A stretch of DNA of 64,000 nt from a virus (IMGVR_UViG_3300021514_000002:64001-128000), one strand, 5' to 3'; positions 4,835 to 60,227 are shown, counted from the first letter of the stretch. A program made the numbers and translations. Notes: generated by a model not told the origin, from the letters alone.

Positions 4835-4840
4835 TAATTT

Positions 4841-4916
4841 TGGTGGGAACGGTGGGAGTTGAACCCACGCCTTTCTGATTAAGAGTCAGATATACTAGCC
4901 ACTATACGACGTTCCC
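4841..4916 (-). tRNA. tRNA-Lys(CTT)
   Basis: GGGAACG/CGTTCCC-A-CCA; TCTGA-CT CTT AA-TCAGA. Confidence 0.95.
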
Positions 4917-4922
4917 GTTATT

Positions 4923-4998
4923 TGGTAGTCCCGCACGGAATCGAACCGTGTGTAGTCTTCTTTGTAAGAGAAGTGCGTCGCCATTCAGCATCGGGACT
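4923..4998 (-). tRNA. tRNA-Val(TAC)
   Basis: AGTCCCG/CGGGACT-A-CCA; CTTCT-CT TAC AA-AGAAG; TTCGATT T loop. Confidence 0.93.
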
Positions 4999-13638: not shown

Positions 13639-14802
13639 CTACGAAAGGCTAACCTTCCGTAGGACTTCTTTGCGTAAATCTTCGATAGCTTCGCCGATTT
13701 GTTTACCTTCCAATCTTTCCTTTTGTCCAGTTGTCAACATCTCAAACTCAACAACAATTCCTGCTTTAAACATCTTCAAGAATTTAAAGGCAATTGAATG
13801 AATAAAATGGTTATCAAAAATAATCAACGTAGTTGCTGTTTTATGAAACGTAGTAGGCAATTTCCATGCATGGACTTTGTCTAATACTTTAATAAAACCT
13901 TCCGCAGTATCAAAATCATTAGAATGATCCAAAATATCATTAATCATAGTGCAAGACATTTTTAATGCATTTTTAACAGATCTTGGAGCCTTCAATCGTT
14001 CAAGCATGTTTAATACTTGTTCAGTATTGGAGCCAGCAGCAAGAATTACCATTCGGTCAATAAAATCACTGAACAGTAAGACAGCCCTGTCTAGTGTTTC
14101 GTTGGTTTGAATTGGTAATTTGTTTTCATCAAACAATTCTGGAAACAATACATCAAGGGCATTAACATCATGTAGAACCATAAAAAACTGCATAGGAAAA
14201 TCTTCCATCACTGCTTTTTCTAATTCAGCGAAAACACGTTCTGGGGTTAATTCATCCAATTCACCAGACTTTGTTAGTTGTGCCATCAATTTGAGCGTAT
14301 CAGTAGAAACACTAAAATTGTATCGTGCTGCAAATCTTGCCACGCGAAGAACACGTACTGGATCTTCTGCAAACGCATCACTAACATGCCGAAGCAGACC
14401 GCTTTCTAAATCCTGCATCCCATTAAATGGATCAATAACAAAATGTGTACTTCGTGTCTCTTGGAATTTTTCCCAATTGTCACGGTTTACCGCCATTGAA
14501 TTGACAGTCAAATCCCGACGGAACAAGTCATCTCTCAATGTTACAGAAGGGTCAAAGTCGGTTTCAAAGCCATGGTAGCCAGAACCAATTTTCCGTTCGG
14601 TACGCGCCAGTGCAAATTCTTGACCTTTTTCGTCAAGGAAAACAGGAAAATCAGCGCCTACTTGTTGAAAGCCGTCAGCAAGCATTTCTTCTGGTGTTGA
14701 ACCAACAACAACAAAATCCATATCCTTAACTGGCCGACCGAGTAAGGTATCCCTGACGGCACCGCCGACTACGAAAGTTTCTGTGTGAGTGTGAGTTGTC
14801 AT
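13639..14802 (-). CDS. cca: tRNA nucleotidyltransferase (CCA-adding enzyme, class II)
   Basis: [39 protein letters not shown]. Confidence 0.93.
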
Positions 14803-40179: not shown

Positions 40180-40455
40180 TTACTTTGCGCGAGTTTGTAC
40201 TAGCATAATATCTGTGCGATTATGTAAATGTTTAAGAATAAAAACATTTAAAGTGCGCTCAGACTTAAATGATATTGCGGACTTTTTATTTTTTGTCCAC
40301 GTGATAGTATTATTAACGTCGTCGTAATCCGCAACATAGAATATTTTACTATTTTTTCGTTTACCTATGAACCAAACCAAACTACCAGATTTTTTCCCCG
40401 CTGCTTTCCGTACAAGGTTAATTTTTTTACGGGCAGCTCTACTTTGGTTGGGCAT
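40180..40455 (-). CDS. Hypothetical basic protein
   Basis: ORF in a minus-strand run. Confidence 0.6.
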   Translation of the reverse strand: MPNQSRAARKKINLVRKAAGKKSGSLVWFIGKRKNSKIFYVADYDDVNNTITWTKNKKSAISFKSERTLNVFILKHLHNRTDIMLVQTRAK

Positions 40456-50238: not shown

Positions 50239-51056
50239 ATTGTTATCTAATAGTTTAATTTTTCCGCAAGAGTTTTAGCATATTCAATTTGTTGTTCAAT
50301 GTCTTCAAAGTCACCATTAACGTAAAGACGGACATCGTGCGTGAAGTCTTCTGATCCAATAAAAACTTCACCGCGCTCAGAACCAACTTCCCATTCTTTT
50401 GTTTCATTTCTTTTCTTATTCATTTTTAACCCTTGCTATTTTCTCAAACATTTCTAGGCCACAATTTTGGCACAGGTCAACTTCAACTGTATTCATATCA
50501 CCCCATACTGAACTGTAACCACCTGTAAAGTCTATATGAATAAACTCTTGTATATTCATAATATCATCATATACTTTTTTACATTTATCACATTCGATGG
50601 AAGTTATTTGTTTATATGTAGTTGGAACATCTTTAGTGTGTATCATAATGTTTAATTCCCCTCTTCCATATCTAACATTATTCTAATGTAAATATATACA
50701 ATTACTACTACCCCTGTTGGCACTATAGATATAAGTACAAGTGACACCGGCATCTCATTCCACATATGAAGAACTACCCCATCGGCTCTACTAAAGTATA
50801 ATAGTGTTGTTAAAAATACACCAAGACATAATATGATAAGGATATCAACGCGTTTCATCTTCAATCCTGAAGTTTGCACGACCATTTTCTACAATATCAT
50901 CGACGAAATCTAAACACATGTCAATTTCTTCTGGTGTGGCATCATATAAATCATCTGAATATCTAATCACCTCACGATCAATATATCCTTTATCAACATA
51001 ATGTAGTGCTATCTTTTTTAATTCTGCTTCGGTCATAATTATTATTCCTAAAAAGA

Positions 51057-51144
51057 TGACAAGATGTCGGTGGCTTGGTGGTAATCCTGCAAGTACAAGC
51101 CCGTTAATGCTTCCATCTTGTGCTAGGATGCCAACATCTTGTCA
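51057..51144 (-). ncRNA. Rod-like hairpin RNA
   Basis: 14-bp terminal stem TGACAAGATGTTGG/CCGACATCTTGTCA plus inner stems TCCT/AGGA and AGCACAAG/CTTGTACT; strand uncertain. Confidence 0.5.
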
Positions 51145-51148
51145 AAAC

Positions 51149-51272
51149 TGGCGGACGGGTAGGACGTTACCCCTACTGCTCTCTTTCTACTGAATCCGAT
51201 TCCCCGCTTAAGTTCAGGGTTCGCGCGATGGACTTGCCCTCGCTGCATGTCTAACTTTCCACACTGCCGTCC
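51149..51272 (-). ncRNA. Oversized tRNA-like RNA ending in CCA
   Basis: GGACGG...GTAGG-GGTAACGT-CCTAC-CCGTCC-G-CCA. Confidence 0.65.
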
Positions 51273-51771
51273 ATAAAATATTTTATATCTTACCATACTA
51301 TTAACTACCGTGTCAACTACAATAGTTCTTGACAATTAGGTTATGATTTGATATAGTAAGGCTGTGAAATAAACATTGAATTAAAACGTAAAGGTCTTAA
51401 ACAACATATGCATATTAACACTATACTAACAGATAGAACTAATCTTAACAATTATTTGTTCATATCTTTAATCGTGATGAATATTTTTGATTTTATTACA
51501 ACCTATATAGGTATTATGTATTTTGGTGCAAGAGAAGTGAATCTTGTTATGGCTACAGCCATTGAACTAGTCGGCACAGTATGGGCAATCTTTGGGGGTG
51601 AAGGCATTGGTTTTTGGATATATCTATTATCATTATTACCATACAGTCAAAGGAAAGACGTTATGGGTAACTCCAAGAACAACGTGGTTCCTTGTTGGAT
51701 TTAATATAATGTTTTTAGGTGTGGTTATCAATAACCTTGTTCGTATTTCGATGAAAATGTAAGGAAATAAA

Positions 51772-58722: not shown

Positions 58723-59042
58723 CACAGGTATAAACGGGAATAGACAATGGACACGATGACAACAAATGCAGCCAAGATTTTATTGGCAGCAAATTACAAA
58801 GGTGCGGAATACTTAGGTATGGATGGTTATATGAACCCGTGCATCTACGTAGGCCGCGAGCCAATTGTCATTGAAGCTTTATACGATACTGCCGAAGGCA
58901 ACGAACAGGCTGATGTTATTGAAAATTGGTTAAAAACTAACTGTTATCAACTATGGTCAGATATGATGCCAGACAGCGGTACTCGTATTGAATGGCTTAA
59001 ACTTTGTTTGGAACAGTTAAAATTTACAGTGCATGATTAATT

Positions 59043-59324
59043 ATGAATAACGTTAACGCCCAAAACTACTGCGATGATCCACCTGATATCGAAGCTTGGT
59101 TTGATAAAGGCATAGAACAAGGTGCAACGCACATGTTTGTGGTGTGTGAAAACGTAAACATTAGTCCTGTTTATACAATACCCCCTAACGACATTAGTCC
59201 TGTCTATGTAATACCCCCTACCGATTTTCATCGTATTGAACAACTATGTTGTATTGCTGGACATATTATGAATCTATATGACCTTTCACGACCATTTAAA
59301 GAACAGAAAGGAAATTATGAATAG
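59043..59324 (+). CDS. Hypothetical protein with an internal 11-aa duplication
   Basis: NISPVYTIPPN / DISPVYVIPPT. Confidence 0.6.
   Translation: MNNVNAQNYCDDPPDIEAWFDKGIEQGATHMFVVCENVNISPVYTIPPNDISPVYVIPPTDFHRIEQLCCIAGHIMNLYDLSRPFKEQKGNYE
59158..59223 (+). repeat. 33-bp tandem duplication
   Basis: acattagtcctgtttatacaataccccctaacg / acattagtcctgtctatgtaataccccctaccg. Confidence 0.9.
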
Positions 59325-59572
59325 TATTGAAGATTGTTTAAATTGTTTGGTTGAGACTTTTAGTGAATGCCACGATGTCAGGTGTGTTCCCAGTGTACTT
59401 ATAGGTGGTGGGTTTGTATATCGTGTAACTGTTACTAATTTGCCCAACGCAAATGTTTATTCTTGTAGAGATACGTCATATTTAAAAGCGTTCATTGGTG
59501 TCATTGGTAAAATTAAATTAGATGTAGACATGTCCACATGTCGGACTTCAAAAGATGTTTAAATAAATTTAC

Positions 59573-59711
59573 GGACGGAGAAGCGGGGTAAATGCGGACA
59601 TGGAAACTAAGCTGACTTGGAATACCCGCCATAATTGTGCATGTCGCGGCCATTTGAGCGTACAATCTTAGGCAAGGTTAGCGATTGGGTTCGAATCCCA
59701 CCCGTCCACCA
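59573..59711 (+). ncRNA. Oversized tRNA-like RNA with canonical T loop and CCA
   Basis: GGACGG...TGGG-TTCGAAT-CCCA-C-CCGTCC-A-CCA; no standard anticodon arm. Confidence 0.75.
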
Positions 59712-59837
59712 TTTTAAATAGAGTGATGTATATGAATACAGATCAAACCATAATATTAGCAATCTTCTTATCATTTGTTCTTTTTGCAGGCAATCCTGAT
59801 TTAATGGACGTGTTTATACAATGGATAATAAAAAATC

Positions 59838-60227
59838 ATGATTAAACGAATCATTCCTGAACACGATCTTTTGGCATTAGAAAATGCAAGGGTTAAATTA
59901 TATAAATTGTTTCCTGATTTGGATCCTGCTACTATTATAGAATTACATAGCATAACTGCCCCAATGTGGAAAGTTGCCAACAAGAAATATCCTATAGTAA
60001 CGGATAGTGATTCTTCTGATAATGAAGAAAAAATTCGTACTTATGAAGCGTTTTTGCATAAATTGCAGATGTTTGTCCAAGTGACACTGGATAAGAAATC
60101 GGTTAGCAAATTAATATCAAATGCTTGTGATTGGAGTTATGCTCATCGTGTAGGCAATGGTCAATATTCAGACAGAGAACAACAAGCTATTATTGACAAA
60201 GTATTTAAGAAATTAACCGATACTTAA
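59838..60227 (+). CDS. Hypothetical protein
   Basis: Clean ORF. Confidence 0.65.
   Translation: MIKRIIPEHDLLALENARVKLYKLFPDLDPATIIELHSITAPMWKVANKKYPIVTDSDSSDNEEKIRTYEAFLHKLQMFVQVTLDKKSVSKLISNACDWSYAHRVGNGQYSDREQQAIIDKVFKKLTDT

Follow-up and report, generated by a model that had tools for sequence, protein, structure and literature searches.

What kind of RNA begins and ends like a tRNA, has no anticodon arm, and is encoded far from the tRNA genes of its phage? The question is raised by a 139-nt locus, here called RNA B, in a 363,531-bp virus genome (G000), rated complete, that was assembled from a hydrothermal-vent metagenome and contains a T4-type major capsid gene by gp23 family match. Positions refer to the window, the whole 64,000-nt stretch of this genome that was analysed, unless another record is named. 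The features of the locus are:

59573-59711 (+), RNA B, 139 nt, the tRNA-like RNA under study (G000 123573-123711)
59573-59579 (+), acceptor 5' strand of RNA B, GGACGG and A7; pairs with 59702-59707 at an ensemble pairing probability of 0.99
59686-59700 (+), T arm of RNA B, 4-bp stem UGGG/CCCA with the 7-nt loop UUCGAAU
59701-59711 (+), acceptor 3' strand of RNA B (C, then CCGTCC), discriminator A and encoded CCA
59317-59562 (+), 81-aa orphan ORF, its stop codon 10 nt upstream of RNA B
59723-59845 (+), small hydrophobic ORF of 37-40 aa, its start 12-21 nt past the CCA of RNA B, at the downstream edge of the gap

tRNA-like ends at an isolated locus

The acceptor and the canonical T arm that the initial annotation had described are both present. 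The acceptor of RNA B consists of six Watson-Crick pairs, G1-C135 through G6-C130, followed by a mismatch of A7 opposite C129 (59701), and the T stem pairs UGGG (114-117) with CCCA (125-128). Every conserved position of the T loop is canonical (G53-C61, U54, U55, C56, R57 and A58), the discriminator is A136, and the 3' NCCA is present with its CCA encoded. From the T loop to the discriminator we counted 11 positions (six pairs, the A-C mismatch and four pairs), as compared with 12 in a tRNA, and position 3:70 is A-U (A3-U133), not G-U. In addition, positions 114-130 are identical at 17 of 17 letters to the T arms of the tRNA-Ser(gct) and tRNA-Asn of the same phage, an identity that points to a tRNA origin of RNA B.

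We searched the 363.5-kb genome with a descriptor that required a stem of 4 bp or more around a T-loop-like heptamer, immediately followed by an acceptor strand of 7 nt, together with an NCCA tail and a matching 5' acceptor strand 95-260 nt upstream. RNA B was the sole match genome-wide other than the 3' halves of ordinary tRNAs. The chance expectation was taken from 30 first-order Markov shuffles of the genome, in which the true TTCGAAT loop gave 0.23 matches per shuffled genome before the CCA was demanded and ~0.004 with it. The tRNA-like ends of RNA B are real and not a product of chance. An accidental arrangement of letters would draw on the loose form of the descriptor, which already yields about 0.6 CCA-ended matches per shuffled genome, but it is hardly credible at the expectation obtained with the true loop, and it leaves unexplained the intergenic fit of RNA B, its base composition and the second locus with the same acceptor described below.

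RNA B exactly fills the intergenic gap between the 81-aa ORF and the small hydrophobic ORF. Its G+C content is 52.5% against 35.8% in the flanks, which makes it a G+C island, as the phage tRNAs are, in a genome of 36% G+C. It also stands alone, as had been annotated: the nearest tRNA gene is 51.5 kb away, and all 45 tRNA genes of the phage are on the opposite strand. In approximately 40 of these 45 genes, an encoded CCA is followed by an A/T-rich trailer, and by its own encoded CCA and A/T-rich trailer RNA B appears to fit this local style of tRNA processing. The neighbours (GroEL, orphan ORFs and a YopX protein) are uninformative as to its role, and the 81-aa ORF had no homologue among 5.8 billion proteins. 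The scan of the plus strand from GroEL to RNA B detected no promoter-like or terminator-like site, so that RNA B would probably be excised from an operon transcript. We also observed a palindrome, GACATGTC, followed by CACATGTC in the 3' end of the 81-aa ORF (59528-59543, plus strand), 30 nt before RNA B.

The interior, in which a pseudoknot-capable core had been proposed, fared differently from the ends. The complementary stretches on which that proposal was based do exist as letters, but at chance level: one exact complementary 6-mer was observed against 0.92 expected, and seven 5-mers against 4.1 expected (p 0.16). The proposed core therefore finds no support. The minimum free energy of RNA B has a z-score of +0.30, a stability no greater than that of shuffled sequences. 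Among the predicted helices, the stem 11-18/51-57 of the initial annotation has an ensemble probability of ~0.1, the stem 62-68/88-94 of ~0.6, and a long-range helix, 39-44/105-110, of ~0.67.

RNA B and known tRNA-like RNAs

ARAGORN, Rfam and a deletion scan gave no tRNA, interrupted tRNA or tmRNA, in agreement with the earlier description of RNA B as a tRNA-like RNA gene that lacks an anticodon arm. ARAGORN made no call in its standard, intron, mitochondrial or tmRNA mode. No Rfam family matched at gathering thresholds and the tRNA family RF00005 did not match even at E 10; the only match at E up to 10 was to tmRNA (RF00023), with 7.0 bits against a gathering score of 47 and over the T loop only. 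RNA B therefore shows the T-loop consensus and the 3' NCCA of a tRNA, and it lacks the cloverleaf and the 12-bp (7 + 5) stack. Compared with the phage's own tRNAs, it has the same T loop, encoded CCA and A/T-rich trailer, whereas no D or anticodon arm was accepted by the tools and the stack is 11 bp instead of 12 bp. We also considered an interrupted tRNA. Each single deletion of 43-70 nt was tried in ARAGORN for RNA B and for RNA A, the second RNA introduced below, and none gave a tRNA, while a tRNA carrying a 60-nt insert, used as the positive control, gave 569 matches.

Related jumbo phages do carry oversized tRNA genes, and these become tRNAs after one deletion, in contrast to RNA A and RNA B, which never do. 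Three such genes, 101-126 nt long, were overlooked by ARAGORN (G025 4837-4938, plus strand; G021 40224-40349, minus strand; G007 78803-78903, plus strand). One of the oversized tRNAs has a ~30-nt hairpin in the anticodon loop, one a second T-arm-like insert, and another, a tRNA-Ser(UGA), has an aberrant D arm. Two tRNA genes with the anticodon CUA (amber suppressors, labelled Pyl by ARAGORN) were also noticed in the present phage (G000:C1:252271-252344 and 252952-253023, minus strand), as well as in relatives (G025 344214-344286 and L077 12834-12909).

The idea that RNA B copies the acceptor of one host tRNA was not supported. Canonical tRNAs with the acceptor of RNA B, its T loop and CCA are very rare, with 22 matches among the genomes of 185,579 species, about the number expected by chance, and none comes from a likely host group. 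The 22 include one tRNA-Tyr (an Acidimicrobiales MAG) and five tRNA-Ser(UGA)-like genes (Melainabacteria and cyanobacteria). The latter represent a conserved 85-nt gene with the acceptor GGACGG and an unusual D arm that ARAGORN leaves uncalled (L319, L321, L324, L329 and L330, from Melainabacteria, Obscuribacterales and cyanobacterial MAGs).

A likeness is also found in tmRNA (SsrA), which is processed by RNase P and is read by its synthetase via the acceptor stem alone (PMC3985003). The tRNA-like domain of tmRNA and RNA B both combine an acceptor helix, a T arm and CCA with the lack of an anticodon arm. A miniature one-piece tmRNA-like rescue RNA would match this topology, and both the favoured long-range helix 39-44/105-110 and frame 1 of RNA B, which is open until a UAG at 96-98, are compatible with it. 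However, we regard this reading as very improbable. With an A-U pair at 3:70, RNA B lacks the alanine identity element; its open frame terminates in ...SVQS, which is not a degradation tag, and there is no resume codon. The tmRNA mode of ARAGORN is empty, with neither a tag frame nor a tmRNA, and the 7-bit Rfam match is confined to the T loop, so the earlier statement that RNA B has no G3-U70 and no tag ORF holds. Moreover, the phage already encodes a tmRNA in two pieces, which carries G3-U70 and the tag AANDAFFEETRLAA and is conserved in relatives, and no SmpB gene was found in the phage.

This two-piece, circularly permuted tmRNA is located outside the window (G000:C1:233835-234219, minus strand). 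Two-piece tmRNAs with similar tags (ANDAFYGEMRLAA and others) occur in six related jumbo-phage records (G025 304515-304896, G024 50682-51024, G013 129837-130164, G021 82523-82865, G022 131857-132199 and G003 97038-97432). In at least 12 IMG/VR contigs filed as viral (L027, L048, L053, L064, L068, L069, L071, L072, L074, L077, L079 and L080), a two-piece tmRNA lies ~0.4-2.6 kb from GroEL on the same strand, upstream of it in eleven contigs and just downstream in L027, so that tmRNA and chaperonin genes are recurrent neighbours; in the present phage the tmRNA is elsewhere.

Phage tRNA-like stable RNAs, namely species 1 and 2 of T4, have been known since the 1970s, and we place RNA B with this old, unexplained class. 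Species 1 RNA (rnaC) and species 2 RNA (rnaD) are stable small RNAs of 139 and 119 nt from the tRNA region of T4 (PMC3014915, PMC9697503), and rnaC has no known function (PMC3014915, PMC9697503, PMC12685909). The annotated rnaC gene (NC_000866 70908-71046) is exactly as long as RNA B. We built a covariance model from eight Tevenvirinae rnaC genes, down to ~80% identity, with 44 pairs of which 22 covary. Its members share an acceptor-like stem of 7 bp that contains two conserved, central U-U mismatches (replaced by U-A and C-G in phage TG1). A junction stem of 3 bp closes a long hairpin, another hairpin, of 10 bp, has a loop that does not vary, and the T stem has 5 bp. On RNA B, the model scored 8.7 bits (E 0.44) over model positions 115-129 only, which is the T loop, and it matched nothing else across the phage genome.

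Because the model matches the T loop only, RNA B is at most an analogue of rnaC and not a detectable member of its family. The comparison with T4 RNA C made in the initial annotation is thus apt as an analogy, in length, T arm and lack of a known function, while homology of sequence or structure finds no support in the covariance model. A diverged homologue with the same role as rnaC is quite improbable, even though the phage is T4-like by its gp23 family match, T4 likewise has two such RNAs, and in both 139-nt RNAs an acceptor-like helix closes several hairpins and a GGUUCGAAUCC T arm with no decoding anticodon arm. In other respects they differ: the stem of RNA B has 6 bp, all Watson-Crick, and its T stem 4 bp, the CCA is encoded, the interior is not stable, and the gene lies 51.5 kb from the nearest tRNA gene, whereas the rnaC genes encode no CCA, sit inside tRNA clusters and specify a stable, covarying fold (z -4.6 against shuffles for T4 rnaC).

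Further tRNA mimics that do not decode, such as the bacterial Y RNA-like YrlA, the tRNA-like structures of plant viruses and mascRNA, copy a partial tRNA shape to engage tRNA-binding proteins. In YrlA the RNA ends form a Ro-binding stem, in contrast to the CCA-ended acceptor helix formed by the ends of RNA B; a TROVE/Ro60 gene was not found in the phage, and a host copy is possible. The plant-virus structures are 3' ends of genomes and mascRNA is eukaryotic, unlike RNA B.

A second locus with the same acceptor

The sequence CCGTCCNCCA occurs only twice in the whole genome, both strands included, and each occurrence is closed by GGACGG, 124 or 139 nt upstream. The 139-nt locus is RNA B, and the 124-nt locus, RNA A, is accompanied by signals of its own:

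51149-51272 (-), RNA A, 124 nt, acceptor GGACGG / ACCCGTCC, discriminator G and CCA
51287-51316 (-), promoter-like site of RNA A, TTGACA, 18 nt and TAAGAT with an extended TG, a consensus match of sigma-70 type that may act as its promoter
51050-51143 (-), possible terminator of RNA A, 10-bp inverted repeat (51143-51134 with 51067-51058) followed by a T run

In RNA A, a T-arm-like hairpin of 5-6 bp with a non-canonical loop precedes the 3' acceptor strand. At both loci, GGACGG / ACCCGTCC-N-CCA closes a 105-120-nt body, at the 3' end of which stands a T-arm-like hairpin. The common ends comprise the 6-bp acceptor, the preceding AC and the CCA, 17 identical letters altogether; the discriminator is A in RNA B and G in RNA A. 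We found no third member with this acceptor in the genome. The promoter-like site ends 14 nt upstream of RNA A and the candidate terminator, which is absent from the terminator scan owing to its long loop, is ~90 nt downstream; given these two elements, RNA A looks like a free-standing RNA gene. Its G+C content is 56.5% against 33.9% in the flanks, its fold has a z-score of -1.25 against shuffles, and it has no Rfam match.

The bodies of the two RNAs are unrelated. Their interiors align no better than shuffled sequences (z 0.63), the 32 nt before the acceptor being the sole stretch to reach p 0.048, and no common interior fold emerged from the ensembles. The hexamer GACATG recurs at nt 25-30 of RNA B, with its complement at nt 68-73, and at nt 22-27 of RNA A, maybe by chance. 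A coding reading of this shared element was rejected, as the AUG in GACAUG opens unrelated frames in the two RNAs and the frame in RNA A runs beyond the CCA.

The probability that two unrelated bodies would carry the same six stem pairs and the flanking AC by chance is roughly 4^-8. An identical acceptor and CCA on interiors no more alike than shuffles is what selection on the acceptor sequence itself would be expected to leave. The shared acceptor was apparently either kept by selection after an old duplication or acquired twice, and both origins imply that the letters of the acceptor matter and not pairing alone. This identity on two unrelated bodies is the strongest functional clue that we obtained. 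It fits a role through an acceptor-specific partner, as read from the two sequences, and does not say which partner. Our tentative reading, to which we give a probability of roughly 0.4, is that the two genes, for RNA A and RNA B, form a family private to the phage, and that their products are tRNA mimics, processed to a CCA end, which act via a selected acceptor/T minihelix.

A simpler possibility is that RNA B is a decaying relic, an ex-tRNA gene or a pair of tRNA ends around unrelated DNA that is out of use. Such a relic would account for a T arm identical to those of the phage's own tRNAs, and for the lack of an anticodon arm, of a thermodynamic signal and of a homologue elsewhere, in a lineage that does carry odd, expanded tRNA genes. 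We nevertheless consider it unlikely. RNA B retains both acceptor strands, the T loop and the CCA in intact form, no single deletion turns either RNA into a tRNA accepted by ARAGORN while the odd long tRNAs of the relatives all pass, and the 17 end letters were kept at two loci despite interiors that cannot be aligned. The G+C island has also been retained in a genome of low G+C, and a relative with ~10% divergence still aligns over both loci.

That relative was found among the public runs containing this stretch. There are three: the sample from which the genome probably came, another vent metagenome whose pieces are identical, and a marine metagenome from another study (run X3). The contigs of the marine run represent the ~10% diverged relative and cover both RNA bins at a likeness of at least 80%. 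For RNA A in this ~90% identical relative, the one difference listed is a 1-nt insertion in a predicted loop. One contig of the marine relative joins 59038 to 59313, so that it is without the 93-aa ORF at 59043-59324, and it keeps the RNA B stretch.

Beyond these runs, blastn of RNA B against 50,697 phage records (INPHARED) returned only matches to tRNA T arms, and its 3' 25-mer had no match in IMG/VR. An acceptor-anchored pattern gave two matches in IMG/VR, both in long ORFs of high-G+C contigs without a T arm, and of two JGI metagenome scans one gave none and the other a single chance match in a coding region. BLAST of 34 capsid-relative records revealed no homologue of the RNA, and in nine relatives, complete or large and amounting to 1.79 Mb, the descriptor picked up only expanded tRNAs and matches inside ORFs. 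An RNA B-like element was likewise absent from 80 GroEL loci and from the vicinity of homologues of the downstream 129-aa protein, while the upstream 97-aa ORF has orthologues with 79% and 67% identity (Logan SRR30965924 and ENA ERZ27251236). Since no homologue of RNA A or RNA B was recovered in these searches, covariation support is lacking for the interior and even for the acceptor.

RNA B could also be a cis-acting punctuation mark, whose tRNA-like fold serves only to attract RNase P, with RNase E acting at the A/U-rich trailer, so that the operon mRNA is severed downstream of the 81-aa ORF and ahead of the small membrane ORF. The cut would determine how stable the flanking messages are or how strongly they are expressed, and the excised RNA would have no job. 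Consistent with this, neither a promoter-like nor a terminator-like site accompanies RNA B, which lies in a plus-strand gene run behind GroEL, 10 nt past the stop of one ORF and 12-21 nt ahead of the start of the next, and whose interior gives no sign of selected structure. In contrast, RNA A, which has the same acceptor, sits between divergent promoters with no co-oriented ORF to process. For a cleavage signal, an encoded CCA, a perfect T loop and one acceptor sequence at two loci would all be superfluous, and in T4 both the tRNAs and rnaC are functional or stable RNAs although their transcripts are polycistronic. We therefore judge punctuation to be rather unlikely.

Candidate partners of the shared acceptor

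For the processing, stability, partner and biological role of the two tRNA mimics, we infer the following. The acceptor/T-arm minihelix would make the precursor a substrate of RNase P at its 5' end and of the usual trimming at its 3' end, and this processing would free a stable, CCA-ended RNA B from the operon transcript, while RNA A would be transcribed from its own promoter. The CCA could be kept intact by a CCA-adding-type enzyme of the host or the phage. Having no anticodon arm, the mature RNAs would be unable to decode. Instead, they may present one acceptor helix (G1-C72, G2-C71, A3-U70, C4-G69, G5-C68 and G6-C67) and CCA to a partner that reads acceptors, for which the candidates are an aminoacyl-tRNA synthetase or synthetase-like enzyme that is independent of the anticodon or, alternatively, a toxin or sensor that targets the acceptor or CCA ends of tRNAs.

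Several features count against the proposal of an acceptor-reading partner. With 11 bp instead of 12 and a mismatch, the acceptor/T stack may be recognised less well by RNase P, EF-Tu or a synthetase. The T loop of RNA A is non-canonical, and the differing discriminators (A and G) are unusual for substrates of one synthetase. In terms of stability, RNA B does not exceed shuffled sequences and RNA A reaches a z-score of only -1.25, as against -4.6 for T4 rnaC.

The phage genome encodes two proteins of relevance to a CCA-ended acceptor. The first contains a PolyA_pol/CCA-adding-type nucleotidyltransferase domain (14389-14775, minus strand, G000 78389-78775; 73.9 bits) in a 401-aa open frame, and by this domain match the phage itself probably repairs or builds tRNA 3' ends. 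The second is a minimal class II synthetase-like ORF of 192 aa inside the tRNA array (G000:C1:18736-19314, minus strand, the same as L331:1282-1860), which matches PF00152 at 26.5 bits and phrog_4806 at E 1.5e-50. The protein has a motif 2 (FRDD) and a motif 3 (GTGLAEPR) and no anticodon-binding domain, and it matched the sequence of no solved structure. The family phrog_4806 is present in 278 phage records (rV5-like, phiCbK-like, Acinetobacter T4-like, XacN1 and Bacillus phage G), with labels that conflict between histidyl- and seryl-tRNA synthetase. To our knowledge, this family, widespread in tRNA-rich large phages, has never been characterised. Genes for SmpB, TROVE, FemAB and the cores of class Ia, class II (2b) and AlaRS synthetases were not found in the genome.

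These proteins allow a more specific version, in which RNA A and RNA B, private to this phage and devoid of an anticodon, carry amino acids or serve as baits, and their shared acceptor is an identity code for an enzyme without an anticodon-binding domain. The 192-aa phrog_4806 protein is a candidate reader of this code, linked to the RNAs by presence in the same genome only. Once charged, or only bound, the RNAs could then act outside decoding, either by supplying a tRNA-dependent transferase or by absorbing a host defence directed at acceptor or CCA ends. In this specific form the proposal is distinctly unlikely.

In the broader reading, of a phage-private family acting through a selected minihelix, the unusual acceptor helix and CCA shared by two unrelated bodies point to a single acceptor-reading partner, and this makes the question of phage tRNA-like RNAs experimentally tractable. 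With a defence toxin as the partner, the RNAs would be a decoy that counters tRNA-targeting immunity. With a synthetase-like enzyme, they would form part of a natural system of anticodon-independent charging, and a first function could be assigned to the minimal class II synthetase-like proteins of large phages. If the partner is neither, the two RNAs would be a clean case of tRNA ends reused as a module for processing and stability.
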